From Chitinophagales bacterium (lineage in GTDB: Bacteria > Bacteroidota > Bacteroidia > Chitinophagales > Saprospiraceae): a DNA stretch of 44,586 bases. How positions within the stretch are numbered: position 1 is the first letter of the stretch; every line of letters begins with the position of its first letter. Shown here piece after piece: positions 6,162 to 44,560 of this stretch. Under the pieces are notes generated by a model. The model was not told the origin of the DNA. It worked only from the letters and a program-made list of their open reading frames with translations, and searched no databases. Location: positions 1 to 44,586 of the forward strand of contig JAAFHO010000001.1 of assembly GCA_013297575.1 (NCBI GenBank), given 5' to 3'. The translations under genes were made by a program, and so were the position numbers.

Positions 6162-6251
6162 AAAAAAGAATTTTAGAATGAATTAGATGTATAAAACTAT
6201 TGCATCAAAACACCTTTTTAAGACAATTGTTTTATACATCTAACTCAATGC

Positions 6252-9200
6252 TTATCTAATCAAAGTGACATCGCCTTTATACATTTCGATGGTTCCATCA
6301 ATCAATTCAACTTCTAACAACCAAATATACACCCCAGAATTGGCTGTTTTACTCCGCAAACGGCCATCCCATTGTAAATCAACATCGTCAGGCATTCTAT
6401 TTTCCTTACTATGCATCAAATCCCCCCAACGATCAAATACCTGAAACCGTTTGACACGTTGTACAGAAGCACCAAATCCAGGTGAGAATCTACTATTTTG
6501 GTCATCCGAAGGATTCATTGCAAATACATTTGGGACAAAAACCTGTTTAATCCGTTCAATCATTATGGTCATTTGATCGGATGCAGTACAGCCATGTACA
6601 TCTGTCACTGTTAGCGTATAACGAATGGAATAATGCGGTTGAGTATAAGTGGTTAACGCATTGGAATCCCTCAAAAAATCGGTATTATCCCAAGCATATC
6701 GGACAATATTAGTTGCCGTAGTGAAGATATTGAGTTGCAAAGAGTCCCCAAAGTATAGTGCTGTATCTCGTGGCAAATCCAACAATAGCTGACCGGGTTG
6801 CGACACCCGTAAGTCCGTTGTATCACTACACCCGTAAGTATCAATGGTATAAACAATATAGTTTTTGGCGATCAAACCCAGATATTGGTTTGTTGCTACA
6901 AATGGTGCACCATCAAGGCTATACATCAAACTATTATCGGGCGATTTGATATTGATTTGGCCATTATTTTCACCAAAACACCGTACTGAATCTGCTGTAA
7001 TTTCGGCAATGATCGGCGGATAACCAAATACATTGATATTCCCTGTTTCGGTACAATTGTTTGCATCTGTAATAGTCAATTGATAATTTCCTGGCGGTAA
7101 TTCATCTATATCGGCATCGTTGGGCAAAATAGGCGACCATTTATATAGATACGGAGGCTTACCGCCGTCAACTGTAGCCCTTATACTGCCTGTTGGCTCA
7201 TTGAGGCAAGATGAATCCGAGGTAATTCCAAAAGTAATCAGGGGCTGAACAATCAATTCAACGGTATGCGTTGAATCGCACCCATTTTTTGCTATAAATA
7301 CTTTGGAGTACTTACCTGCCTTATTCTGACTTTGACCAAAAATAATAAAAGAACCTTCGGGGCAAATCGTTTCACTTTGCGCAGTTGCAAAAGTATCCTT
7401 GGCGATAACATTGATATAAATCGTTGAATCACAGCCTTGTATAGTAGATAATGGGAACAACTTTGATGTACCGGGGATGATTACCGTATTGAGTTTGGTG
7501 ACTACATCGCCTTTACACACCAGCGTATCTATTTTTACATAAAACGTATCATTTACGGTCAAAAATAAAGTATCCGTGCTTTTGCAACCGTTGATAAATC
7601 CCGCTTCCAAAATAATATTGCCCGAGTTTTGGCGATAAGCAGTAACAGACGAGCAATTGGTACAATCATATACTGGCCCAGGTTTCCATGCATAATAATC
7701 AAAACCACTTTCGGCGATAGTTACTGTTTCACCCTTGCAAATGGACAAATCAGGACCAAGCACCACCACGGTGCTACTATCTATACCAACAACCAGCGTA
7801 TCCGTTTGCTCCACTCCGCAAATATCTGTGGATTTTACCCAAAAAACACCAGCATCTGGCACCGTGAAATTTGGGCTGGTTGTGCCATTCTGCCAAACAA
7901 AACTGACTAAATCATTCCCTGATGCGTTGAGTGCGATCGTAGCATTATCACAAATCAAGGTATCATTGCCTAAAAACACCGTTTCTGGTTTATAGGCATA
8001 GAAAAACTTAGTAAAATTATTGGTAAAGCCGCATTCACCAAGGCTCGTTATTGGGAATTGGCTCAGATTATAAGGAGCAGGTTCGGAGTGATCGTCATTC
8101 AACGCAATATAAATCGTATCGTTAATTACTAAATCACGCGGTACTTTTATGGTAATGGAATTACACGCCCCCAAAGCAACGGGAAGGCCAATGGGAGCAG
8201 CCCCAACCCAAACTGCCGCTTGCACCAGCGGATTACCCCGATAAACAGAAACTGGCATTTGAGCAGGGAGTATATTATCACCAGTATTACAAACTTCTAA
8301 TGTTATTTGAATAGAATCTTTGATGCAAGTGGCCTTTACAAATGAAATACCACCATCGGGGGAAGGAAAACTGGGGTTAAAAAACTGATTGAGGAAATTA
8401 TTCATTTTCAAACTATCTCCTACAATATGATGGTTTTGTTGGTACTGAGGCACACTCAAATCATCATTGATATTGGTACTAAAATATCCATGTTGGTTCC
8501 AAACCGGACGGGAAGAAATACCCGGCGCGCCCACTGCTTCGTAACAAACCACATGACCAGAAGCACCGCCAGCACCGCATTCAATGACAATTTCAGTTTG
8601 TCCATCCGCATCAACATCCAAAATCAAAGGATTTTCAATATGTGTTGCAGAGGTGCAATTATCTTCCCATTTTATTTGCCCTGTTGCACCTTCCAATATT
8701 TGTAATTTTGCTTGACCACGATACACCACATCGGCAGTGCCATCACCACAAAAATCAAAAATGCTAGAACAAGTAATGGATGACGCGTCAAATGTTTGGC
8801 TTTTCCACATTTGGGTGAAATTATTCTTCAAGGCATACAGCCAAGGATAACACACAAAACTCACCTCCAACTGGCCGTCGCCGTTCAAATCGGCTACATT
8901 GATACGACTTGCTCCCTCTATATAATTGTTCAATAACCTGAATTCGCGCAGAATAGTTGGGGTTTGAATATCCCAGCAATAAGCATAATTCCAATTGTTT
9001 TTTTGGCCTTGTACAATGGCATCTAAATCACCATCCCTGTCAATATCGGCAACACTTGTAAAGCCGTCAGAATATGCAGCAGGCGCAGAAACCACCACTG
9101 TAACCACTCCAGTTACAAGATTAACGGATAAAACCTGGTTACCAGCCACAATTTCAAGCCCTTGGCAATCGGGGCAAAAACTATCCGGTAATACGTCAAT

Positions 9201-9938
9201 TGCGACTGGCATATTAAACGAGAAACCATTATTTTTCCTAAATGGATGCTCGCCAGCCGACATTGTATTGTCACCAGAAGCCAATAATACCCCCGTTTGT
9301 CCACTAAATACTTGATTTCCTACATTGATTTCCGGCCATCCATCGTGGTCAAAATCGGCAATATTGGGTACCGAAAAACGGTATCGTTGGTTATAACCTA
9401 CCTGTATAGCCGAAGCAAATTTTAAAGCACCCAAGTGGGAATAACAGCGTAAAATTCGGTCATTACCGATAATAACAATTTCACCAAAGCCATCCTTATC
9501 CAAATCGGCAATCGCGGGTGCTGTACCACCGGGCAAATCAGTTGGCGATACAATGGTCAATTTAGTAGCACCTGTTTTCCCATCAATAATAAAGATGTTT
9601 TTATTTTCGCAGTGATAGGTTACAATTTCAGGGATTCCATCTTTGTCCATATCTCCCGCAACAAGTGGAGAATAAGTATCCGTTTCGGCGGGACTTGTCC
9701 ATTGTACGCCTAATGAAACCTGACCGCAAGGTGGAATGTAATAACAATCAGCATTACAGGTAGTATAGTAAAAATCATCACATTGCCCCGTACAAGTACA
9801 ATCGGTATCGTAACAATCGATGAGACCATCGCCGTCGTCGTCAATACCATTGGTACAATTTTCAACGACTTGTGCAAAAGAGAGCAATGGGATAAATACA
9901 GATAAAGTGAGGAGCAGTTTTTTAAAACAAATGGTCAT
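6252..9938 (-). CDS. giant cell-surface protein: Cys/Asp-rich Ca-binding N-terminus, FG-GAP/VCBS propeller repeats, SprB repeats, T9SS type-B (gliding motility-associated) C-terminal domain
   Basis: The signal peptide MTICFKKLLLTLSVFIPLLSFAQ fixes the start at 9938. There are seven DxDxDG-type repeats (DMDKDGIPEIV, DLDKDGFGEIV, DFDHDGWPEI ...). SprB-like repeats are present (CFGENNGQINI, CLNEPTGSIRA). The C-terminus VFVPNVF...DRWGDL...GVYIW...KGDVTLIR matches the CHU_C/type-B sorting domain. Confidence 0.85.
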   Translation of the reverse strand: MTICFKKLLLTLSVFIPLLSFAQVVENCTNGIDDDGDGLIDCYDTDCTCTGQCDDFYYTTCNADCYYIPPCGQVSLGVQWTSPAETDTYSPLVAGDMDKDGIPEIVTYHCENKNIFIIDGKTGATKLTIVSPTDLPGGTAPAIADLDKDGFGEIVIIGNDRILRCYSHLGALKFASAIQVGYNQRYRFSVPNIADFDHDGWPEINVGNQVFSGQTGVLLASGDNTMSAGEHPFRKNNGFSFNMPVAIDVLPDSFCPDCQGLEIVAGNQVLSVNLVTGVVTVVVSAPAAYSDGFTSVADIDRDGDLDAIVQGQKNNWNYAYCWDIQTPTILREFRLLNNYIEGASRINVADLNGDGQLEVSFVCYPWLYALKNNFTQMWKSQTFDASSITCSSIFDFCGDGTADVVYRGQAKLQILEGATGQIKWEDNCTSATHIENPLILDVDADGQTEIVIECGAGGASGHVVCYEAVGAPGISSRPVWNQHGYFSTNINDDLSVPQYQQNHHIVGDSLKMNNFLNQFFNPSFPSPDGGISFVKATCIKDSIQITLEVCNTGDNILPAQMPVSVYRGNPLVQAAVWVGAAPIGLPVALGACNSITIKVPRDLVINDTIYIALNDDHSEPAPYNLSQFPITSLGECGFTNNFTKFFYAYKPETVFLGNDTLICDNATIALNASGNDLVSFVWQNGTTSPNFTVPDAGVFWVKSTDICGVEQTDTLVVGIDSSTVVVLGPDLSICKGETVTIAESGFDYYAWKPGPVYDCTNCSSVTAYRQNSGNIILEAGFINGCKSTDTLFLTVNDTFYVKIDTLVCKGDVVTKLNTVIIPGTSKLFPLSTIQGCDSTIYINVIAKDTFATAQSETICPEGSFIIFGQSQNKAGKYSKVFIAKNGCDSTHTVELIVQPLITFGITSDSSCLNEPTGSIRATVDGGKPPYLYKWSPILPNDADIDELPPGNYQLTITDANNCTETGNINVFGYPPIIAEITADSVRCFGENNGQINIKSPDNSLMYSLDGAPFVATNQYLGLIAKNYIVYTIDTYGCSDTTDLRVSQPGQLLLDLPRDTALYFGDSLQLNIFTTATNIVRYAWDNTDFLRDSNALTTYTQPHYSIRYTLTVTDVHGCTASDQMTIMIERIKQVFVPNVFAMNPSDDQNSRFSPGFGASVQRVKRFQVFDRWGDLMHSKENRMPDDVDLQWDGRLRSKTANSGVYIWLLEVELIDGTIEMYKGDVTLIR

Positions 9939-10125
9939 TTGGAAAAAGAAGTGGTATGTTTTGAGCATAGAATGGAAATGGTTATGTTTTGTCCGGCACA
10001 CAAACGACAACGTGATTGATTTCGTGTTCGCTTATGTCCAATTAACAAACAGTTTAGTGTTCTGCTCATGAAAACTTATACAGTAGTGGGAAGTGGATTA
10101 AAAAAAATATAGGAATGTTAATGAA

Positions 10126-10447: not shown

Positions 10448-12301
10448 ATGGAAAGAACACTCTTTTTTGCCCTGTTCGGATTGCTTTTTACAGCAACAGT
10501 AACGGCACAACCCGACCGTTGGCAACAGCGCGTCAAATATGTGATGGACATCAATATGGATGTCAAAGCGCATCAGTACCAAGGCTCCATGCAATTGGAA
10601 TACACCAATAATAGCCCTGATACTTTAGACAAAGTCTTTTATCATTTGTATTTTAATGCTTTCCAGCCGGGAAGCATGATGGATGTGCGTTCGCGTACCA
10701 TTTCGGATGCTGATTCTAGGGTAGCCGATCGTATTTCCAAATTAAAACCGGATGAGCAAGGCTATATCAACGTAAAAACGTTGACGATGGAAGGTATCAA
10801 ATGTACGTTTGAAACCAATGAAACGATTTTGGAAGTTACCTTACCCAATGCCATATTACCCGGCAAAACTGTTCGATTCGATATGGTTTGGGATGCACAA
10901 GTTCCAATCCAAATTCGCCGTTCAGGGCGCGACAATAAGGAAGGCGTTGATTATTCTATGGCACAATGGTATCCTAAAATGTGCGAATACGATTACCAAG
11001 GCTGGCATTCCAATCCTTATGTTGCACGTGAATTTTACGGTATTTGGGGCGATTTTGATGTCACGATTCATATCGACAAAAAATACGTGGTAGCAGCGGG
11101 AGGATACCTCCAAAACCCACAAGAAATTGGTTATGGTTATGAATCTGCTGGTTCTACTGCCCAACAACCAGCAGGTAATTTACTTCATTATCATTTTTTA
11201 GCACCCAATGTTCATGATTTTGTGTGGGCAGCCGACACCGAGTATAAACAAGCCGCTATCAAGGCAGAGGATGGTAGTACTATGCGCTTTTTCTGGCTTT
11301 CTGGCAAGCCGTACGAAGAGCAATGGCTCAAACTCCCTGCCATAATGAGTCGTGCGCGTACACACATGAACAACAAATGTGGTAAATATCCCTATAAAGA
11401 ATACGCTTTTATCCAAGGTGGTGATGGAGGTATGGAGTACCCCATGGCTACGCTTATTACTGGCAATAGATCCCTCAACAGCCTTGTGGGTGTGGCCGTT
11501 CACGAACAACTCCACACTTGGTATCAAATGATATTGGGTACCAACGAGTCGCTTTATGGTTGGATGGATGAAGGTTTTACCTCCTGGGCAGAATCTTATG
11601 TTGAAAACGAACTTGCACGAGAAGGATTAATGGGCAACAAAAAAGCGGAAGAACAATATTGGGAAGGTAATTTAAAAGGTTATACGGCCTTGGCTACCAG
11701 CGGCAAAGAAGAACCGCTCACCGTACACGCAGATCACTTTAAGACCAATTACGGCTATTCTTTGGCCGTTTATGTAAAAGGATGCGTGTTTTTGACCCAA
11801 ATGGAGTATATTATTGGTAAGTCTTCCTTTGATAAGAGTATGTTGCGGTATTTCAATACTTGGAAATTTAAACACCCCAATACGAATGATTTGATTCGTA
11901 TTTTTGAAAAAGAAAGTGGTCTCGAACTTGACTGGTACAAAGAAGACTGGGTAAATACCACAAATACTATTGATTATGCCGTAAAATCGGTTGAAAAAGA
12001 AGACCGCAAAACAACAAAAGTGACCATCACACAATCAGATGTATTTGCAATGCCTTTGGATATTGTAGTAACATATAACAATGGTGACAAAGAACTATTT
12101 TATATCCCGTTAGAATCTATGCGGGGCGCAAAACCGGCAGAAAACAATATGGAACGCACCGTTTTGCCAGATCACCGTTGGGTGGATATGGAGTTTTCAT
12201 TTGAAATACCAGAAAAAATGAAAAAGGTAGCAAAAGTTGAAATTGACCCAACAAAACGCTTAGCAGATATTGATTATAGCAATAATTCTTGGGAACAATA
12301 G
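10448..12301 (+). CDS. M1-family zinc metallopeptidase, secreted
   Basis: Contains a GGMEYPM exopeptidase-like motif, the HEQLHTWY zinc motif and a downstream E (WMDEGF). The signal peptide MERTLFFALFGLLFTATVTAQ gives the start at 10448. Confidence 0.85.
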   Translation: MERTLFFALFGLLFTATVTAQPDRWQQRVKYVMDINMDVKAHQYQGSMQLEYTNNSPDTLDKVFYHLYFNAFQPGSMMDVRSRTISDADSRVADRISKLKPDEQGYINVKTLTMEGIKCTFETNETILEVTLPNAILPGKTVRFDMVWDAQVPIQIRRSGRDNKEGVDYSMAQWYPKMCEYDYQGWHSNPYVAREFYGIWGDFDVTIHIDKKYVVAAGGYLQNPQEIGYGYESAGSTAQQPAGNLLHYHFLAPNVHDFVWAADTEYKQAAIKAEDGSTMRFFWLSGKPYEEQWLKLPAIMSRARTHMNNKCGKYPYKEYAFIQGGDGGMEYPMATLITGNRSLNSLVGVAVHEQLHTWYQMILGTNESLYGWMDEGFTSWAESYVENELAREGLMGNKKAEEQYWEGNLKGYTALATSGKEEPLTVHADHFKTNYGYSLAVYVKGCVFLTQMEYIIGKSSFDKSMLRYFNTWKFKHPNTNDLIRIFEKESGLELDWYKEDWVNTTNTIDYAVKSVEKEDRKTTKVTITQSDVFAMPLDIVVTYNNGDKELFYIPLESMRGAKPAENNMERTVLPDHRWVDMEFSFEIPEKMKKVAKVEIDPTKRLADIDYSNNSWEQ

Positions 12302-12776: not shown

Positions 12777-15662
12777 TTAATGTACGAGTAATTTCCCGGC
12801 AGCGATCGGCTTACCATCGGCAGCAAGCCGATAGAAAAGTAATCCGGCTGGTAATTGGTCTCTGTACAATTGGAATGTGGCATTGGTGTGTATGCGATTA
12901 AAAACCAAGCGACCTTGAGCATCTACTATCTCCAATAGATAGGAATTTGCTAAAACGCCTGTTACCTCAAAAGTGGTGCTTTCCACGAATGGATTGGGAT
13001 AGACCCGCAGATCAGCACCTGGGAAGTAAATTTCTTTCGATTGTACTGATACTTCCAAAAAGGAATCACATACAGTGTGGAAGGTTTCATTGGTTAAAAT
13101 AGATTCGTTAAAATCGAATCCGATAGCAGCGGTGTTTAGTATTTCGGAACCGCATGGCACGTTCGGTTTTTGGGAAACACGGAACTTGACATACCCTTCA
13201 CTATTGCTGCTACCGGTCGGACCTAGATTAATGTTCGTTAAAGTGAACTGAACAATTCCGTCACCATACACCGAATAAGTGTAAGGGTGGCTCGCGGTGC
13301 CCGGCCTCACGGACGCGGGATCTAGCCAAGGAGATAAGGTGTCCCTGACGAATACTTGGTGAACAGAATCTGTACCGGTGTTTTGGAATCGGATTAAATA
13401 ATCTATATCAGTTTGGGGTTTGATATAGTGTGGATCTTTGTAACCCTTGGGATGGCCTCTCTTTAAAAAATCAGGATTAAAATCAGTTTCGTAAGTTTCT
13501 TGGCAATCAGAAGCCGTAAATGGCTCTGCGTCATCTTCGGGGAATACCGTGTAAAAACCCGTTGTTGTATTCGTAGTTGTATCGGTTTTGCATCCTTCTA
13601 TGGCAGCAGTTGGAATACTCATGCCCGGATAACCGTTGGTTTGCTCTGCTATGATGCGGTATGTTTTACCAGTGGCGGCAATATCATAAACCAGTGTATC
13701 CTCACCTGGGAATAGGGAATCTATGATTCCAATTTCATTATTTGGAGGAATAACCCTCAATACAATCAGGTCTTCAATAATAACATACCCTAACTCATTA
13801 CCATTAACGCCTGTCCCTCTATTAGTCAAAGAAAGTTTGACACGGCCATTTTTACATTTAGCACTGGCCTCAATAATAGCACCATCCCAGCCAGTTACAC
13901 CGCAAAAAGCATCAGGCGTAATGAAGGCACGCATACAATGCGCAGAAGTGAGTGCTACATCGCAATCCAAAAAGGCATCAATTGTAAAATCACCGCAATT
14001 ACCTGCCAATACCAAACCAATATCAAAAATCAAGGAATCGCCTTGTACTGTATAAGGCTTAGAAGCCGAAACAATAGAAAAATCGGGAGACTTTACGACA
14101 ACTACTTTGGTGTTTTGGGAGGCACTGGTGCCAGAGTTACAATAGCGTACAGTATAGGTATTATTGGTACAACGACGTAAGATAGGCGTTTGAATATCCA
14201 CTTCGTTGTAAGGACAAATTTGTTCTCTCCTGATACCTATATTTGTTCTAATGGTGTCGTAAAAGCCCAAAACAGGTACTGTAATACTGCTTTGACAAGG
14301 AGACCAATAGCCATTGGGTGGATAGACTTTTATATCGTAAATACCGCTGTCCACCATTAAAAAATAGTCTCCATTTGGCTGTGTGGCTGTATAACGGGTA
14401 AAATCGGGACTAGAAACCTTAATCAACCAGTTTTTTAACGGTGCTTCATTAGACTGAAGTTCACAGTCATTATTAAGATCATTAAAAATATTGCCCGATA
14501 TATAATTGGTAAACAAATTGCCATCTGCATCTGTCTTAACCATATAGGCATAGCGAGGTGGCTGCAAAGGGCTGGTAGATGTAGACGCATAACCTACTGC
14601 AACAAAACCACCATCTGCGGCACGGCTTACAGCATAACCTTCTGTTAGCCCTGATTTTTTAGCAGAATTCTCCCATACCAGCACCCCCATATCATCCAAT
14701 CGGGCAATATAAGTACTAGATTCTATATCTGCTATCTCAGGCGTGCGGCCAGTAACAACGTAACCACTTTTACCATCAGATTCAATATCATTTAAAACGG
14801 ATGCCTTATTAATAAAGTCCTGAGTTTGTATCCACAATGGTACTGCATCGCCATTGCCTGATATTTTCATTACCAATCCTCTAGAATTCGGATCCCCACC
14901 AGGTAAAATTACATACCCAGCAACTATAAAATCACCATTTTTAGCTCTTGTAATACCCGTACCCTCCTCTTCTCCAATCGGGCTGATCGCATATACTTGC
15001 TCCCAAATTACATCACCTGAACCTGGATTTATTCGGACAACATAAATATCTTTTTGGTTCGGAATCTTACGCCGATAACCAGTTACTACAATATCGCCAT
15101 TTTCGGCTATTACAACATCGCTACCTTTCTCTTCAAAATCTGGAAGGCCAAAAGTTTTAGCCCAAATCAATGTACCATCAGCAGCCGTTTTTACGACCCT
15201 CATTTGTTCTGGACTGTCGCTGTAACCTACTAAAACAACAGAACCATCCGATAATAAAGCAAGATCATTAAATTCATCTACGCCATTTACCCCTAATGAT
15301 TTATTCCAAATTAAATTACCGCTAAAATCGGTTTTGACAAGCATCCCATTTCTTCCTGTTCCTGTTCCTTGCCATCCTGTAATATAATAACTCGTATCCG
15401 GAGCCACTTCTATGGCGAGTGCCTGTGCTGGAGCCGAAACAATATTGATCTTATTCCATTGTAAAAAGCCATCTACATCTACTTTAATCAGGTTCAGATT
15501 ATTGCCGTTGTAGAAACCTGCCAAAATATAACCTCCATCTGGTGTGATTTCCACATCAAATGCTTCATCTTGTCCTCCACCAGAGTAAATACGCTCCCAA
15601 CCCTGTCCGATCAACAGATGGGCAGAGAGTAAAAAAGCAAATGATAAAATATACTTTGACAT
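12777..15662 (-). CDS. large secreted protein with beta-propeller-like repeats and a T9SS type-A (Por) C-terminal sorting domain
   Basis: The signal peptide MSKYILSFAFLLSAHLLIGQ gives the start at 15662. DGG(Y/F)(I/V)xxGY-type repeats recur. The C-terminus LRVYPNPF...LEIVDAQGRLV...GLLFYRL...GKLLVH matches the type-A CTD. Confidence 0.85.
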   Translation of the reverse strand: MSKYILSFAFLLSAHLLIGQGWERIYSGGGQDEAFDVEITPDGGYILAGFYNGNNLNLIKVDVDGFLQWNKINIVSAPAQALAIEVAPDTSYYITGWQGTGTGRNGMLVKTDFSGNLIWNKSLGVNGVDEFNDLALLSDGSVVLVGYSDSPEQMRVVKTAADGTLIWAKTFGLPDFEEKGSDVVIAENGDIVVTGYRRKIPNQKDIYVVRINPGSGDVIWEQVYAISPIGEEEGTGITRAKNGDFIVAGYVILPGGDPNSRGLVMKISGNGDAVPLWIQTQDFINKASVLNDIESDGKSGYVVTGRTPEIADIESSTYIARLDDMGVLVWENSAKKSGLTEGYAVSRAADGGFVAVGYASTSTSPLQPPRYAYMVKTDADGNLFTNYISGNIFNDLNNDCELQSNEAPLKNWLIKVSSPDFTRYTATQPNGDYFLMVDSGIYDIKVYPPNGYWSPCQSSITVPVLGFYDTIRTNIGIRREQICPYNEVDIQTPILRRCTNNTYTVRYCNSGTSASQNTKVVVVKSPDFSIVSASKPYTVQGDSLIFDIGLVLAGNCGDFTIDAFLDCDVALTSAHCMRAFITPDAFCGVTGWDGAIIEASAKCKNGRVKLSLTNRGTGVNGNELGYVIIEDLIVLRVIPPNNEIGIIDSLFPGEDTLVYDIAATGKTYRIIAEQTNGYPGMSIPTAAIEGCKTDTTTNTTTGFYTVFPEDDAEPFTASDCQETYETDFNPDFLKRGHPKGYKDPHYIKPQTDIDYLIRFQNTGTDSVHQVFVRDTLSPWLDPASVRPGTASHPYTYSVYGDGIVQFTLTNINLGPTGSSNSEGYVKFRVSQKPNVPCGSEILNTAAIGFDFNESILTNETFHTVCDSFLEVSVQSKEIYFPGADLRVYPNPFVESTTFEVTGVLANSYLLEIVDAQGRLVFNRIHTNATFQLYRDQLPAGLLFYRLAADGKPIAAGKLLVH

Positions 15663-15886
15663 GAGATAATGGATAAATAAGTTTTCTTTGACGATACAAA
15701 AGTGCGGCAAGACTTTTTGGTACTGAAAGGCAATTTTTGTCATTTGTTGAAATAAATTTATTACAGATTTTGAAAAGAATGGAGACAAAATTAATAAATA
15801 TTGTTAATTTTCGCAAAAATTATACTTATTTGACGAATAATAGCGTTTAAAGGTTGGGTATTTGACAATAATTTGTTGAATAGAAT

Positions 15887-35508: not shown

Positions 35509-36531
35509 ATGACAAATACAACCATAGAAACAGATATAATTATTATCGGTGCAGGGCCAGTTGGCTTGTTTGCCGTTTTTGAAGCAGGTTTACTCAAGTT
35601 AAGGTGTCATATTATTGATATTTTGCCACAACCTGGTGGTCAATTGACGGAGATTTATCCTAAAAAACCGATTTACGATATACCCGGTTATCCATCGGTA
35701 CTGGCATCGGAATTGGTGGATAACCTGATGCAACAAATTGCGCCCTTTAACCCTGGTTTTACCCTTGGCGATTCGGCGGAAATAGTGGAAAAACAAGCCG
35801 ATGGGCGTTGGTTGGTGACTACTGGCCGCGGTCAGCAGCATTTAGCACCTGTTATATTTATTGCAGGGGGATTGGGTTGTTTTGAGCCTCGCAAGCCCCC
35901 TATTGACAATATTGCTCAATTTGAGGACAACGGTGTGGACTATTTTGTACGCAACCCCGATCAGTATAAAGATAAGCGTATTGTGATTGCTGGCGGCGGC
36001 GACTCGGCATTAGACTGGACTATATTCCTAGCCGATGTGGCCAAAGAAGTGACCCTAATACACCGTAGAACGGAATTTCGTGGCGCACCAGATTCTGTGG
36101 AAAAAATGTATGAATTGAGCCATCAGGGCCGTATCAAATTGGTGACCAATGCACAGGTAACTGGCTTGAATGGTAATGGTCATTTGCAAAGTGTGGTGAT
36201 CGAACACGATACAGAGGGTACATCTGTGGTAGATGCGGATTATTTTGTACCATTGTTTGGTCTTACTCCGAAACTAGGCCCTATTGCCAACTGGAATTTG
36301 AATTTGGATAAAGGTGCTATTGAGGTAAACACCTTTGATTACGCCACAAATGTGGAAGGCATATTCGCTATCGGGGACATCAATACCTATCCCGGCAAAC
36401 TAAAACTGATCCTTTGTGGATTCCACGAGGCTACTTTGGCTTGCCAATCGGCGTATAAAATTGTTTTTCCTGGGAAGAAACTGTCGTTTAAATATACTAC
36501 TGTGACGGGTATTGAAGGATTGGGTGCATAA
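35509..36531 (+). CDS. ferredoxin-NADP+ reductase, thioredoxin-reductase-like type
   Basis: 340 aa with the motifs IIIGAGPVGLFA (FAD), GGGDSALDW (NADPH) and GDI..YPGKLKLI..GF.EA, typical of YumC-type FNR. Confidence 0.85.
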   Translation: MTNTTIETDIIIIGAGPVGLFAVFEAGLLKLRCHIIDILPQPGGQLTEIYPKKPIYDIPGYPSVLASELVDNLMQQIAPFNPGFTLGDSAEIVEKQADGRWLVTTGRGQQHLAPVIFIAGGLGCFEPRKPPIDNIAQFEDNGVDYFVRNPDQYKDKRIVIAGGGDSALDWTIFLADVAKEVTLIHRRTEFRGAPDSVEKMYELSHQGRIKLVTNAQVTGLNGNGHLQSVVIEHDTEGTSVVDADYFVPLFGLTPKLGPIANWNLNLDKGAIEVNTFDYATNVEGIFAIGDINTYPGKLKLILCGFHEATLACQSAYKIVFPGKKLSFKYTTVTGIEGLGA

Positions 36532-36582
36532 ATATTGGATACTCTGCCGTAACATTGCTGCGAAATAATACATCTGCAAAAA

Positions 36583-38001
36583 ATGAAGATACAAATTAGT
36601 AATTTTGGGCCAATTGATTTTTTGGAATTTGACATAGATAAAGGATTACACCTTATTTATGGAAAAAACGCTGTGGGAAAATCTTATGCAGCCAACTGTA
36701 TCTATTGTTTGTTGAAAAACCTGAGTCCAATAGTAACCAATAATATCCAACATGGTGATTTTTCAATAGAACTTCAAAAATTAACTCATACTGCTATTGC
36801 TGATCTGTCTAATGGGGAAACAGTAGATTTAAGTGTCCAATATACTAGTTTTATCAATGAAAAATTAAAATTACATATTGCGCAAGGTTTTGAAATATCG
36901 TTAAATAATACGTTCCCATCACTGACTAATTTAAGTAATAAATACTCAAATAATCCATTCAAAATTGAAGTATTTTCGACTTCCAGTGAAAGTATTAGTT
37001 TTGAACCTAAAGGAAACGACCTGCTTGCTTCCTATCATAATCGTAACCAAGAATTAATAATCGCAAAAAAAGGAAGTGATGGAACGTACGAACTTAGGAG
37101 TATGGAAACGATCATTGGGACTACAATATCAACCCCCAAACTTGTCTTAGACCTAGTCATAGAGCATGCTTTGCTTAAAGTTCAAAGTATGGCATTCAAA
37201 CTATCTGCAAGCATTAAAGATATTTATTTCATTCCCGCAGGCAGATCGGGGCTTCATCAAACAATAAATGCTTGGGGACCAATCATCGCAGAGATTTCTC
37301 AATATCGGTTTCAATTAAAAAATAAAAAACTAGAAATACCCGCACTTACAGAACCCATTTCTGATTATTTCCTCGATTTATCTACAATTAATGCTGCCGT
37401 ATCAAACTCTAATTTTGATACAATTATACAGAAAATTGAAGAAAATGTATTAAAAGGTACTGTGTTTTATGATGAGCACTCGCAACAGATTTACTTCCGA
37501 CCCAAAGGGTTAGATTTGAATCTGAGTCTTTCGGAAACATCCTCCATGGCCGCGGAAATTGCTCCAATTGTTATCTTTTTAAAACACATACTAAATAATA
37601 GGCACTCAAATAATAATACCGCTCATCAAGTCCAAGAGTACGCTCCTAATTATGGTGTAACCCAATCAAAACAAGATATAATTTTCATCGAAGAGCCCGA
37701 AGCACACTTACATCCTGAAACACAGGTTGCCTTACTAGAAATACTTGCGGAACTATCTACAATGGACATAAAGATATTTATGACATCACATAGTAATTAC
37801 ATGTTCAACAAAATGAATAATATGCTTTTGGATGGCCGGCTTAATAAAGATAATGTGGCCGTTTGTCACCTAATCGATGGGGCGGGGGGAAGTATCAAGA
37901 ACGCAGATATGACCGTGACAGCAGATGGTGTTAATGATGATAATTTCCAAAATATTTCCAAAATGTTGTACAACGAACGTATGAATATATACGAAAAGTA
38001 A
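36583..38001 (+). CDS. ABC-type (AAA_15/AAA_21-like) ATPase; candidate sensor/motor of a defence module
   Basis: 472 aa. Walker A is GKNAVGKS (res 27-34). There is a roughly 330-aa insert containing FIPAGRSG. The signature-like segment is LSLSETSSMAAE. Walker B plus D-loop reads DIIFIEEPEAHLHP (365-378). The H-loop is TSHS (401-404). No Toprim or nuclease domain is visible. Confidence 0.8.
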   Translation: MKIQISNFGPIDFLEFDIDKGLHLIYGKNAVGKSYAANCIYCLLKNLSPIVTNNIQHGDFSIELQKLTHTAIADLSNGETVDLSVQYTSFINEKLKLHIAQGFEISLNNTFPSLTNLSNKYSNNPFKIEVFSTSSESISFEPKGNDLLASYHNRNQELIIAKKGSDGTYELRSMETIIGTTISTPKLVLDLVIEHALLKVQSMAFKLSASIKDIYFIPAGRSGLHQTINAWGPIIAEISQYRFQLKNKKLEIPALTEPISDYFLDLSTINAAVSNSNFDTIIQKIEENVLKGTVFYDEHSQQIYFRPKGLDLNLSLSETSSMAAEIAPIVIFLKHILNNRHSNNNTAHQVQEYAPNYGVTQSKQDIIFIEEPEAHLHPETQVALLEILAELSTMDIKIFMTSHSNYMFNKMNNMLLDGRLNKDNVAVCHLIDGAGGSIKNADMTVTADGVNDDNFQNISKMLYNERMNIYEK

Positions 38002-38008
38002 AACGGAT

Positions 38009-38521
38009 ATGTTAGACAAGATCTATAAAACAGAAGCCCTTTTACCTTTTCTGAAAGAAGAATGCTGCGAAAATGAAGTTTGTATTTCATTCGATGCTGG
38101 GATTAATAAAGAGGATTATGTCGTTATTAAAGTAGATGACTATTATAATACCTTAAAACTGGATAAAACTCCACCATCCCCAGATTGCTTAATTATTCGT
38201 AAATGTGAATATTCTGGCTACGGATTAACGATTGTAGAACTTAAGAATATTAAATCAGCAGATGGTTTCAAAATAGATAACATGATCGGTAAATTCAATA
38301 CTTGCATCAATGATTTTATTATGGTGCGCTTCAAGGATTTGCTGTTTAGAGATTATGTGGACATTAAACTATATTTTGTTTCCAAAATCAATAGCTATGA
38401 TAATGATAGAGACCTAGGGCTGAAGTTGGAAACCCTCATAGAGACAAAATTTCACTATAATGGCAAAAAACACATGATACGTGCTACTTTGCCAAATCCA
38501 ACCATAAAAAAATGCTATTAA
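38009..38521 (+). CDS. short PD-(D/E)xK-type nuclease-fold protein; candidate effector
   Basis: 170 aa. The motif SPD59-CLIIRK ... LTIVE77-L-K79-N has 17-residue spacing, with a hydrophobic strand after the D and before the ExK. It starts 7 nt after the ATPase stop. Confidence 0.65.
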   Translation: MLDKIYKTEALLPFLKEECCENEVCISFDAGINKEDYVVIKVDDYYNTLKLDKTPPSPDCLIIRKCEYSGYGLTIVELKNIKSADGFKIDNMIGKFNTCINDFIMVRFKDLLFRDYVDIKLYFVSKINSYDNDRDLGLKLETLIETKFHYNGKKHMIRATLPNPTIKKCY

Positions 38522-38841
38522 ACACCATAATTATAAGCATCACCGACCGCGAAAATCAAGTCCATGAACTCGAAACACCCACCGATATGGGTTTGAGTAT
38601 CATGGAATTGTGCAAATCATATGAATTACCCGTAGAAGGTACTTGCGGAGGAATGGCACTTTGCGCTAGTTGCCATGTCTATGTGCTTTCTGAACACGAT
38701 CTGCATGAACCATCAGACGATGAACTTGCCATGTTGGATTCAGCATTTTTTGTAAAGCCGAACTCTCGTTTGGGTTGCCAAATTAAAATCACCGAAGCAT
38801 TGGATGGCTTGAAATTGAAATTAGCCCCTGTAAGTACATAA
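38512..38841 (+). CDS. 2Fe-2S ferredoxin (adrenodoxin/Fdx type)
   Basis: 109 aa with the cluster ligand pattern C-x5-C-x2-C (GTCGGMALCASCHV) plus a distal C (RLGCQI). Its ATG overlaps the last 10 nt of the preceding gene. Confidence 0.85.
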   Translation: MLLNTIIISITDRENQVHELETPTDMGLSIMELCKSYELPVEGTCGGMALCASCHVYVLSEHDLHEPSDDELAMLDSAFFVKPNSRLGCQIKITEALDGLKLKLAPVST

Positions 38842-38910: not shown

Positions 38911-39516
38911 ATGGCAAAAAAAAATAAAAATCCCCTTCACACCTCCAGACGTACGTTTTTTAAGCAAAGTGCGGTGCTGGCAGCGGTAGCAGTTACGCCT
39001 TCAACTGTATTGGAAGCGGCAGAAAATCGCACTTTTGATAAAGCGGCATACGCATTGGAGCAAGTACCCATTACGCTCTCCATTAACGGAAAAGTGCAAA
39101 AAGTGATGGTGGAACCTCGTGTAACACTTTTAGATTTGTTGCGCGAACAACTGGGTTTAACTGGTACTAAAAAAGGCTGTGATCACGGACAATGCGGTGC
39201 TTGTACCATTCATATTGATGGAAGACGTGTAAACTCCTGTCTTACTTTGGCCATTATGCAAGAAGGTCGCGAAATAACGACGATAGAAGGTTTGGCCAAT
39301 GGCGAAGAACTTCACCCAATGCAAGCAGCATTTATTAAACACGATGGCCTACAATGCGGCTATTGTACCCCAGGACAAATCATGTCGGCAGTAGCCTGTG
39401 TCAATGAAGGCCATACCAATAATGATTTTGAAATACGGGAATTTATGAGTGGCAATTTGTGCCGTTGTGGCGCTTACCCCAATATCGTTAACGCCATAAA
39501 AGAAGTTGCTCAATGA
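38911..39516 (+). CDS. molybdoenzyme [2Fe-2S]-binding small subunit with Tat signal (PaoA/YagT-like)
   Basis: Twin-arginine signal SRRTFFKQSAVLAAVA. Two 2Fe-2S motifs are present (CDHGQCGACT and CGYCTPGQ...CRCGAY). Confidence 0.85.
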   Translation: MAKKNKNPLHTSRRTFFKQSAVLAAVAVTPSTVLEAAENRTFDKAAYALEQVPITLSINGKVQKVMVEPRVTLLDLLREQLGLTGTKKGCDHGQCGACTIHIDGRRVNSCLTLAIMQEGREITTIEGLANGEELHPMQAAFIKHDGLQCGYCTPGQIMSAVACVNEGHTNNDFEIREFMSGNLCRCGAYPNIVNAIKEVAQ

Positions 39517-40490
39517 AACTATTTCAGTACCACAGACCCACAGATACACAATCGGCACTTGATTTATTCCAAAAGAATGAAGGTGCACAGTATATAGCAG
39601 GTGCGACGAACCTACTCGATCTAATGAAAAAGGATATCGTAGCACCTGATCATTTGATCGATATTAGCCGTTTGCCTTTAAATAGTATCCAAAATGGCCC
39701 TTTAGGTGTTACTATTGGAGCATTGGCATTGAATAGTGATGTGGCTATGCACCAAATCATAACGCAACAATACCCACTTGTAGCCCAAGCATTATTGGCA
39801 GGTGCATCCCCGCAATTGCGGAATATGGCTACCGTTGGCGGCAATATTTTACAAAGAACCCGCTGCCCCTATTTTTATGATATTGCCATGCCTTGTAACA
39901 AACGCCAACCCGGTTCTGGTTGCGGCGCTAAAGAAGGCTTTAATCGTATGTCCGCTATTTTTGGTGCCAGCGATAGTTGTGTGGCCGTGCACCCTAGCGA
40001 TTTATGTGTCGCATTAGCCGCCTTGGACGCAACAATTACTGTAAAATCGGCTAAACAAGAGCGCATTATTGATTTTAAGGACTTCCACCGCTTGCCTGGC
40101 AATACACCTGAAAAGGATAATATTTTGGAAAAAGGGGAATTGATAACGAGCATTACTATTCCTAAAAACAATTTCACAAAGTTCCATAACTATATGAAAG
40201 TGAGGGATCGTGCTTCTTACGCATTTGCGTTGGTTTCGGTTGCTGTGGCATTTGAAATAAAAGACAGCGTAATTCTTGATGCACGCATTGCGCTTGGCGG
40301 TGTAGCGCATAAGCCTTGGCGTGCCTACGAAGCAGAAGCCTACTTAAAAGGCAAATCAGACTCTGAAAACTCTTTTAAAGCAGCAGCTGCTCTTGTAGTA
40401 AAAGAGGCTAAACCATTGACGCATAATGCCTTTAAAGTAAAAATGGCCGAACAAACCGTACTTGCGGCAATGTTGGCAATATTTAACTAA
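39513..40490 (+). CDS. molybdoenzyme FAD-binding subunit (PaoB/YagS-like)
   Basis: 325 aa with FAD_binding_5/CO-dehydrogenase flavoprotein motifs (AGATNLLDLMK, ATVGGN). There is a 4-nt overlap with the upstream gene. Confidence 0.85.
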   Translation: MKLFQYHRPTDTQSALDLFQKNEGAQYIAGATNLLDLMKKDIVAPDHLIDISRLPLNSIQNGPLGVTIGALALNSDVAMHQIITQQYPLVAQALLAGASPQLRNMATVGGNILQRTRCPYFYDIAMPCNKRQPGSGCGAKEGFNRMSAIFGASDSCVAVHPSDLCVALAALDATITVKSAKQERIIDFKDFHRLPGNTPEKDNILEKGELITSITIPKNNFTKFHNYMKVRDRASYAFALVSVAVAFEIKDSVILDARIALGGVAHKPWRAYEAEAYLKGKSDSENSFKAAAALVVKEAKPLTHNAFKVKMAEQTVLAAMLAIFN

Positions 40491-40509
40491 TTCAAATCCT
40501 CTAACAGCA

Positions 40510-42723
40510 ATGAATCATACAAATACTATTTCTGGTGACTCAACTGACCGTGTTGACGGGCGCGACAAAGTAACTGGAACAGCAAAATATACAGCCGAAA
40601 TACCATTACCAAACTTAGTTTATGGTGTATTGGTAGGAAGTACCATTGCAAAAGGTGTCATTAAAAAAATAGATACCTCCGCAGCAGAGAAAGCCGCAGG
40701 GGTCATATCAGTGATTACCCATAAAAATAGCACAAAACTCTTTGGTCTTAAAAAATCAAAGACTGCTAAAAAACTAGACCTAGGTCTTCGTGTTTTTCAT
40801 AGCAAAGACATTGTTTTCAACGGTCAACCCATCGCTTTAGTCGTCGCAGATCGCTTAGAACAAGCACAATATGCCGCTTCTTTGGTCAAATGCACCTACG
40901 AACAAGCACCACATACCACCGATTTTGGCACTCATCTCGATCAGGCACGCCCTTCTTCCAGTAAATGGCTTTCCGATACAAAACGAGGCGATGTAACCGC
41001 TTGGAGCAATGCACCTTTTAAAGTGGATCAAGCATATACTACCCCACAAGAGGTACACAACCCAATGGAGATGCACAGTACCACTGCTATTTGGGAAGGA
41101 GATGAAAAACTGACTGTTTACGACAAAAACCACGCAGTACAAGATATTAGGGATACGCTCGCCAAAGCCCTAAAATTAGAAAAAGAACAAGTTGTTGTTA
41201 ATTCAGAATTTATCGGCGGTGGATTTGGTTCCGGTTTGCGCGTATGGCCACACACTTTTGCGGCTATTATCGCAGCAAAAATGCTCAAACGCCCAGTAAA
41301 GGTGAGTGTTACGCGCCCACAAATGTTTACTATGACGGGTTATCGCCCCGCAACTGCTCAAAAAGTAAGTATTGGTGCCACAAAAGATGGTAAGATTGTT
41401 GGGATAAAACACGAAGCAATTGGGCAAACATCAGAGTATGAAGAGTTCGCAGAGAGCGTTACAGGCATCACCAAAATGCTGTATGCTTGCCCCAATCTGG
41501 AAACCAATTATAAGGTGCTTCCACTTACTTACAGCACACCGATTTGGATGCGTGCACCAGGAGAAGCAACAGGATCATTTGCATTAGAAACGGCTATGGA
41601 CGAATTGGCATATTCATTAAACATGGATCCTGTCCAATTGCGCAAAAAAAACTACGCTGAAACACACCCCGATGACAACAAGCCTTGGTCGAGCAACCAT
41701 TTGACTGAATGCTTAATTAAGGCAGCAAGACAATTTGATTGGGAGGCGCGAAAACCTGAACCTCGCTCTTCCAGCGATAGGGACTGGTGGGTAGGTACGG
41801 GTATGGCGGTAGGCTCTTGGGGTGCTTGGCGTGCACCAGCCACTGCAAGAGCGGTATTAGATTCAAAAGGAAATTTATTGATACAAAGTGCGACGAGCGA
41901 TATGGGACCAGGCACCTCCACCACTATGGTAAAAATCGCATCTGATGCTAGTGGAATCCCAATGGGGAAAATACGTTTTGAGTTGGGTAAATCAAATCTC
42001 CCCCCTTCACCTGGCCAAGGAGGAAGCGTTACTGTCGCCTCGGTTGGATCTGCGGTTTATGATATTTGTACTGAAATCAAGCAAAAATTATTAGATATAG
42101 CCGTTGAGACGCTTGGGGAAACATACAAAGAGGCCAAAATAGAAGATGTATTTCTTATCAATGGCAAAATGGGGATCAAAGGGAAGCCCGCATCGTTAGT
42201 TACGTTTGCTGATTTGATGGAGAAAAAAAATATTACCGAAGTAGAAGCGACAAAAACATCTTCCAGTGGAGAAGAAGGCGGAAAATATGCCTTTTATTCC
42301 TTTGGAGCGCACTTTGCAGAAGTATATGTACACAAATATACGGGTGCTGTACGCGTCACGCGCTTTGTATCGTGTGTAGATGCAGGTAGAATCATGAATA
42401 ACAAAACGGCATCCAGCCAAATTAGCGGTGCTGTGGTGATGGGAATCGGAATGGCACTCATGGAGGAGCAACATATGGATCATCAACATGGTAGGTTGGT
42501 CGCTAATGATTTTGCAGGTTACCATATACCGGTACAAGCAGATGTTCCCAATATCGAAGTAATTTTTGTGGATAAAGCAGATCCGTACCTCAATAAGATG
42601 GGCGCAAAAGGACTTGGTGAAATTGGTTTGATTGGTGCCGCAGCAGCCATTGGTAATGCCGTTTTTCATGCAACAGGCAAACGTGTACGAAATTTACCTA
42701 TCACACCTGATAAATTAATTTAG
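40510..42723 (+). CDS. molybdopterin-binding large subunit of the xanthine dehydrogenase/aldehyde oxidase family (PaoC/YagR-like)
   Basis: Start at MNHTNTISGDSTDRVDGRDKVTGTAKY. Family motifs are present (GGGFGS, MGPGTST, GLGE..L). Confidence 0.88.
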   Translation: MNHTNTISGDSTDRVDGRDKVTGTAKYTAEIPLPNLVYGVLVGSTIAKGVIKKIDTSAAEKAAGVISVITHKNSTKLFGLKKSKTAKKLDLGLRVFHSKDIVFNGQPIALVVADRLEQAQYAASLVKCTYEQAPHTTDFGTHLDQARPSSSKWLSDTKRGDVTAWSNAPFKVDQAYTTPQEVHNPMEMHSTTAIWEGDEKLTVYDKNHAVQDIRDTLAKALKLEKEQVVVNSEFIGGGFGSGLRVWPHTFAAIIAAKMLKRPVKVSVTRPQMFTMTGYRPATAQKVSIGATKDGKIVGIKHEAIGQTSEYEEFAESVTGITKMLYACPNLETNYKVLPLTYSTPIWMRAPGEATGSFALETAMDELAYSLNMDPVQLRKKNYAETHPDDNKPWSSNHLTECLIKAARQFDWEARKPEPRSSSDRDWWVGTGMAVGSWGAWRAPATARAVLDSKGNLLIQSATSDMGPGTSTTMVKIASDASGIPMGKIRFELGKSNLPPSPGQGGSVTVASVGSAVYDICTEIKQKLLDIAVETLGETYKEAKIEDVFLINGKMGIKGKPASLVTFADLMEKKNITEVEATKTSSSGEEGGKYAFYSFGAHFAEVYVHKYTGAVRVTRFVSCVDAGRIMNNKTASSQISGAVVMGIGMALMEEQHMDHQHGRLVANDFAGYHIPVQADVPNIEVIFVDKADPYLNKMGAKGLGEIGLIGAAAAIGNAVFHATGKRVRNLPITPDKLI

Positions 42724-44269: not shown

Positions 44270-44377
44270 AGCCGACAATAGGAATCGAACCTATCTAAGT
44301 ACTTGGACACAATTAATTGTGTCCAAGTACTTATCCTGTTTACAAGACAGGTGCATCACCATGTATGCTTTGTTGGC
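44270..44377 (-). tRNA. tRNA-Thr(TGT)-like gene with a 36-38 nt perfect palindrome inserted in the variable loop (functional status unknown)
   Basis: Acceptor GCCAACA/TGTCGGC (one A-C mismatch), A8 instead of U8, D-arm GCAT-ACATGGTG-ATGC, anticodon arm CCTGT-CTTGTAA-ACAGG, 40-nt variable region, T-arm ATAGG-TTCGATT-CCTAT. 108 nt. Confidence 0.55.
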
Positions 44378-44459: not shown

Positions 44460-44485
44460 GTTTGTAACAAGTATTATGTTTGTAG

Positions 44486-44560
44486 TGGAGGCTATGGGTA
44501 TCGAACCCACCTCACGCTGCATGCAAAGCAGCATCGCCATGCCTTGGAACATTTACCCCC
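44486..44560 (-). tRNA. tRNA-Ala(TGC)-like gene with a non-canonical D-arm (possible pseudogene)
   Basis: Acceptor GGGGGTA/AGCCTCC with G3-U70. The anticodon arm GCTGC-TTTGCAT-GCAGC is perfect, and the T-arm is GTGGG-TTCGATA-CCCAT. The 21 nt between the acceptor and anticodon stems (AATGTTCCAAGGCATGGCGAT) do not fold into a normal 4-bp D-stem. Confidence 0.45.

Follow-up and report, generated by a model that had tools for sequence, protein, structure and literature searches.

Why do genes for an ATPase and for a small nuclease-like protein lie between a reductase gene and a ferredoxin gene in a Chitinophagales bacterium? The question is raised by contig JAAFHO010000001.1, of which a stretch of 44,586 nt, referred to here as the window, was analyzed; coordinates and residue numbers refer to this window unless another locus is named. 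The two genes, A and B, are both open reading frames (ORFs) of the plus strand. An earlier reading of this DNA, the original prediction, described them as co-directional genes 7 nt apart, encoding proteins of 472 and 170 amino acids (aa), and the ORF coordinates agree with this layout (Table 1). The short spacer between them indicates an operon and translational coupling. By analogy with systems that have been studied elsewhere, the pair is likely to be a horizontally acquired defense or abortive-infection system in which A would sense and regulate in an ATP-dependent manner and B would be the nuclease effector. This reading builds on the domain identities of the two proteins, the conservation of their active sites, their obligate linkage, the horizontal mobility and foreign origin of the pair, and the purifying selection that acts on it.

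What kind of protein is A? Its Walker A motif stands at the N-terminus and is followed by about 330 residues, then by D365-IIFIEEPEAHLHP-378 and T401-SHS404, and the protein ends 68 residues past the H-loop. This is the split ABC layout that had been proposed earlier (Walker A, an insert of about 330 aa, Walker B and TSHS), and its motifs do not vary across an alignment of 38 homologues, from which all motif conservation in A was read. Pfam recognizes AAA_15 (5.5e-24, 85.9 bits, cut-off 32.1), AAA_21 (2.1e-12, 48.2 bits, cut-off 27) and AAA_23 in A and no Toprim, HNH or other nuclease domain, in line with the earlier statement that A carries no fused nuclease. The AlphaFold2 model of A (pLDDT 81.8, pTM 0.83) was matched by Foldseek to PtuA, as found in Septu and type I-A retron complexes, and to GajA and Rad50 (probability 1.0, E 1e-10 to 1e-8). 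Because of these matches, A is described as an OLD/PtuA-type ABC ATPase whose insert is large and whose C-terminal extension is short. Within this extension (residues ~405-472), G449, D452, N454 and F455 are invariant. Its motif order and ABC fold place it among the OLD-family/PtuA-like ABC ATPases and not among the OLD-family nucleases proper, in which a Toprim domain is fused to the ATPase; the GajA and Old models of PADLOC match A over the ATPase motifs only. Three homologues of A (P0072, P0106 and P0166) bear misleading public names ('energy-coupling factor transporter ATP-binding protein EcfA2', 'YajQ').

Gene B encodes a single-domain protein with the signature PSPD59C...VE77LK79. Among 73 homologues, from which its conservation was read, D43, S57, D59, E77, K95 and F103 are present in every one, and residue 79 is Lys in 67 and Arg in 6. 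The AlphaFold2 model of B (pLDDT 92.2, pTM 0.89) has the element order alpha-beta-beta-beta-alpha-beta. D43 lies in a helix formed by residues 42-48, D59 just ahead of the strand 60-65, and E77 and K79 at the end of the strand 71-78, which is followed by a long helix (89-107) that carries K95 and by the strand 118-124. In this model B has the canonical core and motif of the PD-(D/E)xK superfamily, of which it is a predicted nuclease member, and the D...ExK signature named in the original prediction is borne out by both the conservation and the modeled fold. The top Foldseek matches of B, none of them significant, are almost all restriction-enzyme-fold nucleases. They include N.BspD6I (probability 0.80), EcoO109I, FokI, Bse634I, Card1, Can2, Cap4, EndoMS, Shedu, herpesvirus UL24 and phage PD-(D/E)xK proteins.

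Four cysteine residues of B, C19 (38063-38065), C60 (38186-38188), C66 (38204-38206) and C169 (38513-38515), are conserved in 69-70 of the 73 homologues. In three Firmicutes loci (L069, L073 and L074), C19, C60 and C169 are jointly replaced by Ile, Phe and Ile or Met. The joint replacement suggests that the cysteines form one structural or metal site that links the N-terminal hairpin to the catalytic strand and to the C-terminal tail. At 170 aa and with this conserved cysteine set, B is about as small as regulated PD-(D/E)xK effectors get, and it may lend itself to studies of how a separate nuclease is licensed by an ABC ATPase and of whether such nucleases cut DNA or RNA.

Do the two genes belong together in other genomes? 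A profile scan with one genome per species gave 80 loci with a relative of B, and at every one of the 78 that had enough upstream DNA an A homologue lies immediately upstream of B on the same strand, so that the linkage expected of a true two-gene system is found throughout. In nearly all related loci the two genes are separated by -32 to +15 nt. The pairwise identities of A and of B are correlated (r = 0.79, 1431 pairs), and A and B co-diverge. Clustering of 459 neighboring ORFs revealed no conserved third gene, and synteny is kept within genera only. The hosts are mostly Bacteroidota and represent at least eight phyla overall; the others are Acidobacteriota, Spirochaetales, Gamma- and Deltaproteobacteria (Beggiatoa, Thiomargarita and Methylococcaceae were named), Campylobacterota, Clostridia, Armatimonadota and Ignavibacteria. 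Sequence identities do not follow taxonomy, as a Pyrinomonadaceae B is 54% identical to the B of the window, whereas Saprospiraceae copies are 33-35% identical. The pair thus moves between phyla as a unit, by horizontal transfer. The B family is rare, with 290 of 1.84 billion cluster representatives matched at E <= 1e-3, and an exact look-up of the B protein of the window returned nothing on record. The 150 listed relatives of B are 111-202 aa long, so there is no fusion among them.

Some copies of the pair are irregular. A is frameshifted, being split over two frames, in L006 (2008-3457) and L035 (6592-7984), and in L079 (2429-2614) only about 98 aa of B are left; assembly errors are possible in these cases. 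The decayed copies indicate that the pair can be lost or inactivated and that its loss is tolerated. One pair (P0034, P0190) is deposited as Agrobacterium tumefaciens and is about 40-51% identical to Bacteroidota copies, which may be due to contamination or to horizontal transfer.

How did the pair come to lie between the two redox genes of the window? The cassette is a foreign insertion. Its GC content is 0.337, compared with 0.418 and 0.427 for the flanking 5 kb on either side, and no other 1.94-kb window of the 44.6 kb has a lower value (mean 0.402, sd 0.019), in agreement with the foreign composition noted in the original prediction. That account also placed the cassette inside housekeeping redox genes, and this holds as well, with a ferredoxin-NADP reductase (FNR) gene upstream, a ferredoxin gene downstream, and both adjacent to each other in relatives. 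The ferredoxin gene directly follows the FNR gene, without A or B, in about 55 of 80 metagenomic FNR relatives, and locus L082 retains the order acyltransferase, enoyl-CoA hydratase, FNR and ferredoxin without the cassette. In the nearest cassette-free relatives the ferredoxin ATG lies only -11 to +9 nt from the FNR stop codon, so the cassette, about 1.98 kb, went into a nearly non-existent spacer. The C-terminus of FNR is intact, its tail ...TGIEGLGA agreeing with the ...TGIEGL of relatives. At the other edge the ferredoxin ATG now sits within the last codons of B (AAA AAA TGC TAT TAA, 38505-38525) and the native ATG GAA has been replaced; the gene starts with ATG GAA AAC ACC ATT in L082 (5190-5215) and with ATG CTA TTA AAC ACC ATA in the window. 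As judged from these sequences, the translational coupling of ferredoxin appears to have been kept by the insertion and to be directed now to B. The locus is a clean natural example of how a putative defense cassette can come to lie between two translationally coupled genes without disrupting them.

The closest relative of the window, L001, has the same gene order, with flanking proteins that are 93-99% identical, A 86% and B 91%. A CAA codon at the position of the B stop (8495-8520 of L001) makes its B 3 aa longer (KKCYQTP), extending into the ferredoxin gene. The FNR context is common to the window and L001 only; a Pyrinomonadaceae locus, L026, was considered as a further case and rejected, as tblastn showed that its upstream 340-aa gene is not FNR. 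The shared gene order and the similar dS values across the region (0.28-0.62) indicate that the pair has been inherited vertically since the lineages of the window and L001 split. The dN/dS values against L001 are 0.17 for A and 0.18 for B, compared with 0.016-0.07 for the flanking genes. A and B are therefore under purifying selection that is 3-10 times weaker than that on their neighbors, and they evolve faster.

Is the pair one of the known ATPase-nuclease systems? In PADLOC, which has no curated cut-offs, the best match of A is PD-T4-4_A (2.3e-27, 94.3 bits, in two stretches), and the alignment spans the insert region, residues 1-338 of A being aligned to profile positions 1-324 of 460. 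The next matches are a generic AAA_15-type AriA model (89.9 bits), PDC-M47A, HEC-02A (6.9e-22), NsnB and GajA. PD-T4-4 was found in E. coli ECOR58, listed as 'ATPase, nuclease' and validated, with a length of 1973 bp (Vassallo et al. 2022); its A and B proteins have the accessions RCO57999.1 and RCO57988.1. It has elsewhere been classed as a PD-(D/E)xK nuclease with a Walker-A NTPase and also as an ABC ATPase system, and it sits in an element resembling an integrative and conjugative element (ICE). The pair described here is likewise an operon of one ATPase gene and one putative nuclease gene, about 2 kb long (1939 bp), and PD-T4-4_A is the best PADLOC match of A, a comparison made through profile models and not between sequences. 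However, B has no match to PD-T4-4_B at E <= 1, and the pair is a bare chromosomal insert whereas PD-T4-4 is ICE-borne. HEC-02, a candidate embedded in Hma loci, consists of an ABC ATPase and a NERD PD-(D/E)xK protein, is protective and requires both genes (Payne et al. 2024). It shares with the pair the combination of an ABC ATPase and a separate nuclease of the PD-(D/E)xK superfamily, and HEC-02A is among the PADLOC matches of A; however, B matches neither NERD in Pfam nor HEC-02B in PADLOC, and the pair is solitary whereas HEC-02 lies inside Hachiman loci.

The third system, WonAB, comes from the WASA-1 prophage of Vibrio cholerae, where an OLD-type ABC ATPase (WonA, AWB73975.1) and a 'variant PD-(D/E)xK' nuclease of small size (WonB, AWB73976.1) act together by abortive infection (Adams et al. 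2025). The substitutions K34A, R182A, E300A and H333A in WonA and K71A in WonB abolish defense. WonB is toxic when overproduced, only with active WonA, and genomic DNA is not degraded but translation stops (Adams et al. 2025). Homologue sequences given in the supplementary table of that paper, among them five complete WonA homologues, were used for comparison. Like the pair, WonAB combines an OLD-type ABC ATPase with a small restriction-enzyme-fold protein, which in WonAB has about 140-165 aa. The residues C9, D44, D55 and E70-L-K72-G in these WonB homologues resemble C19, D43, D59 and E77-L-K79 in B. The comparison of B with the WonB homologues by hhalign gave a probability of 37% with 32 versus 10 sequences and of 60% (E 8.5e-5, 93 columns) with 73 versus 14 sequences. 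The catalytic residues are in register, and hmmsearch was marginal at no more than 12 bits. Taken from sequence profiles of the homologues listed in that table, these results suggest a remote homology between B and WonB. Both ATPases have the motifs IPA.R, EEPE.HL.P and T(S/T)HS. By eye, the R221 stretch of A is like IPA(E/S/G)R in the WonA homologues (IPAERN, IPASRS, IPAGRS), and R221, as read without an alignment, may be the counterpart of WonA R182; the S320 region, again by eye and without an alignment, faces ASSG(Q/I)Q(E/S).

There are also clear differences between the pair and WonAB. The five WonA homologues are about 330-400 aa long compared with the 472 aa of A, and BLASTP between A and the WonA homologues of the table gave 25-28% identity across the C-terminal half, which falls short of full-length homology. 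WonAB is prophage-borne, unlike the pair. Elizabethkingia, which carries the pair, has no entry among the WonAB matches listed by Adams et al. It was considered whether the family corresponds to the 'OLD-ABC ATPase + Novel REase' of Adams et al.; in Flavobacterium psychrophilum, the one species that overlaps with the listed material, the 'Novel REase' differs from the member of the family. A scores 10-13 bits against the Anaerovibrio-type 'OLD-ABC ATPase', which is farther away than WonA; the Anaerovibrio pair has the accessions SHI83489.1 and SHI83462.1.

The fold of A is shared with the ATPases of Septu (PtuAB), the type I-A retron effectors, PARIS (AriAB) and Gabija (GajAB), PtuA and GajA being the closest solved structures, and the principle of an ATPase sensor with a nuclease effector is the same. 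However, the nuclease partners in these systems are different, namely an HNH protein (PtuB) in Septu, a Toprim/DUF4435 protein (AriB) in PARIS, and a Toprim domain fused in GajA with the helicase GajB in Gabija, and none of these is matched here. Neither a reverse transcriptase nor a non-coding RNA was found at the locus among the ORFs or by Rfam, unlike in retrons; Rfam reports no RNA family in or near the cassette, and hence no retron-like RNA.

The combination of an ABC ATPase with a separate PD-(D/E)xK protein had been thought in the original prediction to be an uncatalogued architecture. It has already been validated in PD-T4-4, HEC-02 and WonAB, so the architecture is not new. The pair is a distinct family, so far uncatalogued, in a class whose architecture is known, and only the protein family is new; no housekeeping pathway or named family claims both genes in profile searches. 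The earlier proposal of an uncatalogued anti-phage candidate is therefore kept in part: the family is new and a defense role is its best reading by analogy, but the type of system is not.

How might the pair work? The existence of an A-B complex, its trigger and the outcome for the infected cell are modeled on related systems. By analogy with WonAB, PtuAB and PARIS, A would form a head-to-head dimer around two ATP sites, and its C-terminal extension would hold B in an inactive complex. The large variable insert of A (residues ~45-360) may detect a phage-derived cue, whereupon ATP binding or hydrolysis would license or release B. The released nuclease would cut nucleic acid and so block the production of phage, which the infected cell would probably not survive, as in abortive infection. 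It is possible that the target of B is RNA, because WonAB spares genomic DNA while translation collapses.

Several results weigh against this picture. No named defense protein model matches B, which has no match in Pfam, PADLOC (0 families at E <= 1), NCBIfam, PHROGs or PDB sequences; of the two proteins only A has matches in PADLOC. The Foldseek matches of B have best E-values of 0.069 (PDB) and 0.007 (BFVD), all above 1e-3. The link between B and the WonB homologues of the supplementary table is only moderate (probability 37-60%), and the A-family hidden Markov model scores 34-56 bits against the five WonA homologues, over Walker A and the Walker B/H-loop region only. The PD-T4-4_A score of A (94 bits) is barely above that of the generic AAA_15 model (86 bits). 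Among the viral contigs of IMG/VR, the phages of INPHARED and the plasmids of PLSDB no homologue of B was found. These collections thus give no evidence that phages or plasmids carry the pair, in contrast to WonAB (prophage) and PD-T4-4 (ICE). The neighbors of the pair are mostly housekeeping genes and differ in every lineage. To assess the surroundings, 149 neighbors within 3 genes of the pair were compared in PADLOC with 149 matched-control FNR neighbors. The former gave matches to AbiLi, PD-Lambda-1, PsyrT, PDC-S02, PDC-S31, PDC-S39 and mad3, and the latter gave housekeeping-type cross-matches only (SspA, DndA, mad2, mad3 and mad8). Known defense genes are estimated at about 7 of 149 compared with about 3 of 149 in the control, the counts being our own estimates since the PADLOC output counts families and not members, and the difference is not significant (Fisher p = 0.34). 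The idea that the cassette sits in a defense islet, with enrichment near known defense genes, has thus found little backing.

Could the pair be maintained for its own sake? It may be a selfish, self-maintaining mobile unit of the restriction-modification or toxin-antitoxin addiction type, for which defense is secondary or absent and whose nuclease might create the breaks for insertion. Such a unit would persist through the harm that follows its loss and would spread by self-insertion into chromosomes. The pair is a bare two-gene insert in unrelated housekeeping contexts without a conserved neighbor, and in five genomes it is flanked by long direct duplications of the target. In Elizabethkingia anophelis (L081) it lies between a 70-aa fragment and an intact copy of the same acetyltransferase gene, and the direct duplication of 196 nt (97% identical, ~8218-8413 / 10668-10863) corresponds to the first 65 codons of the acetyltransferase gene on the downstream side. 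Direct repeats also bracket the pair in L020 (60 nt, 1434-1493 / 3652-3711), L035 (34 nt, 6526-6559 / 8586-8619), L043 (59 nt, 3275-3333 / 5178-5236, the repeat being a methyltransferase-like 5' fragment) and L067 (51 nt, 6541-6591 / 8604-8654). The repeats at these five loci (34-196 nt) are 94-98% identical, are derived from the target and have no mobility gene inside; the duplications were deduced from occupied sites only. When 400-nt flanks were considered, 3 of 64 cassette loci had such repeats, compared with none of 323 segments of 2 kb taken at random from these contigs (p = 0.004). In L008 (Bacteroidetes bacterium UKL13-3) a 92-nt repeat (95%, 5196-5287 / 8509-8600) encloses a tyrosine integrase (269 aa, 5364-6173, minus strand; PHROG 216, E 3e-39) and the pair, which travel together as a mini integrative element about 3.3 kb long.

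Insertion with long target duplication has been described for restriction-modification gene units (Furuta, Abe and Kobayashi 2010), and restriction-modification systems are the only other case of such mobility known to us. The pair resembles these units in that its copies elsewhere are flanked by 34-196-nt target duplications or linked to an integrase, and the repeats support a self-contained mobile unit of the defense or addiction type. The absence of enrichment for defense neighbors and the toxicity of overproduced WonB also agree with an addiction unit. However, unlike the restriction-modification units, the pair has no methyltransferase, nor does it have an antitoxin-like partner, and the ATPase of WonAB is needed for toxicity instead of neutralizing it. 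At the cassette in the window there are no terminal inverted repeats or target duplications, only short repeats at chance level, and the pseudogenized copies (A in L006 and L035, B in L079) show that loss is tolerated. Selfish maintenance and defense are also compatible, as restriction-modification systems show. We regard a purely selfish unit as unlikely, and continue to prefer the reading of a defense pair.

Does defense by the pair have to be abortive? The complex may instead cleave invading DNA directly, for example modified or structured DNA, in the style of Type IV or ATP-dependent restriction, and the cell would survive. Such a role is consistent with the best structural neighbors of B, which are Type II/IIS restriction enzymes and nickases, and with the likeness of A to the DNA-binding ABC ATPases PtuA, GajA and Rad50. 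A preprint also places PD-T4-4 among nuclease-NTPase systems that are framed as candidate nucleic-acid-targeting defenses. However, WonAB, the sole relative whose mechanism has been studied, acts by abortive infection without degradation of genomic DNA, no methyltransferase or specificity subunit is linked to the pair, and B has no obvious DNA-recognition domain outside its 170-aa core in the model. Direct, non-abortive restriction is thus quite improbable.

The flanking target duplications motivate a further idea, namely that the pair is an autonomous, recombinase-free mobile element whose nuclease, with the ATPase, makes or provokes the breaks for insertion of the 2-kb unit and leaves long and variable target duplications behind. 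This is a long shot. If it were true, it would account for the precise landing of a bare two-gene cassette at tight sites, intergenic or in the 5' part of genes, in many phyla, and it would extend insertion with long target duplication from restriction-modification systems to ABC-ATPase defense pairs.

A housekeeping role, as a DNA repair or recombination pair like RecF, RecN or SbcCD or as a functional part of the redox operon, is hardly tenable and is effectively refuted by the distribution: A is weakly like SMC_N, RecF and RecN at its N-terminus (E 0.006-0.04) and like Rad50 in Foldseek, and the pair is co-oriented and probably co-transcribed with FNR and ferredoxin, but the profile scores are well under the curated cut-offs (by an order of magnitude for RecF and RecN), the pair is missing in the ~55 close relatives with adjacent FNR and ferredoxin genes, very rare, patchy across phyla and set among lineage-specific neighbors, and it is foreign in composition and evolves 3-10 times faster than its flanks.

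If the pair is a working defense system, as we consider likely, it adds a rare and mostly Bacteroidota-centered branch to the ABC-ATPase-plus-nuclease immune sensors. The branch is missing from defensome censuses because the models of PADLOC, Pfam and NCBIfam do not cover it.

A sigma-70 scan, which does not cover Bacteroidota promoters, found no recognizable promoter and no excess of sites (fewer than in shuffles), and no terminators were found in 34.5-39.2 kb. Since no promoter or terminator is detectable and ferredoxin appears to be translationally coupled to B, the pair is probably transcribed with its host operon. The features of the cassette and its flanks are collected in Table 1.

Table 1. 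Positions of the A-B cassette, its conserved motifs and its flanking genes in the window
Feature	Position	Strand	Support
Left flank: TrxR-like ferredoxin-NADP reductase (FNR), host gene, outside the cassette	35509..36531	+	Pfam Pyr_redox_2 8e-28
Leader, 51 nt, FNR stop to A start; left edge of the inserted DNA	36532..36582	+	
Gene A: OLD/PtuA-like ABC ATPase, 472 aa; proposed sensor and regulator	36583..38001	+	AAA_15, AAA_21, Foldseek
Walker A, G27-KNAVGK-S34 (K33)	36661..36684	+	G27, N29, G32, K33, S34 invariant in 38 homologues
P218-AGRSG-223 motif (R221)	37234..37251	+	P218, R221, S222, G223 invariant in 38 homologues
Degenerate ABC signature region, S320-SMAAE-325	37540..37557	+	S320, S321, M322, E325 invariant
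Walker B and D-loop, D365-IIFIEEPEAHLHP-378	37675..37716	+	F368, E370, E371, P372, E373, A374, H375, H377, P378 invariant
H-loop, T401-SHS-404	37783..37794	+	T401, H403, S404 invariant
A-B spacer, 7 nt	38002..38008	+	
Gene B: single-domain protein of 170 aa, PD-(D/E)xK type (restriction-enzyme fold); proposed nuclease effector	38009..38521	+	
D43, acidic, first core helix (42-48 in the model)	38135..38137	+	73/73 homologues
D59 of the PSPD motif, start of the second core strand (60-65)	38183..38185	+	73/73 homologues
E77-L-K79, ExK motif, end of the third core strand (71-78)	38237..38245	+	E77 73/73; residue 79 Lys in 67, Arg in 6
Right flank: 2Fe-2S ferredoxin, host gene, 10-nt overlap with B	38512..38841	+	Fer2 3.4e-6

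The ferredoxin gene is followed by three co-directional ORFs of 201, 325 and 753 aa (38911-42723, plus strand). Judged from their translations only, they resemble the small [2Fe-2S], FAD-binding and molybdopterin subunits of an enzyme of the xanthine dehydrogenase family. The cassette thus interrupts a longer redox gene array.

The window is otherwise an ordinary Bacteroidota chromosome with cargo proteins of the type IX secretion system, HisD, RNase G, RodA, a major facilitator superfamily transporter and a tRNA cluster. The cluster lies at the contig end (44100-44560, minus strand), where ARAGORN calls Trp, Val, Asn and Ala genes. Rfam gives an extra 108-nt tRNA-like match (44270-44377) that is not called by ARAGORN, and does not report the Ala gene (44485-44560). 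Two very large secreted-type proteins are encoded on the minus strand, one with FG-GAP and SprB repeats and a CHU_C type IX secretion signal (6252-10010) and a second with DUF7619 (12777-15788). Both are without relation to the A-B pair and are typical Bacteroidota surface proteins.

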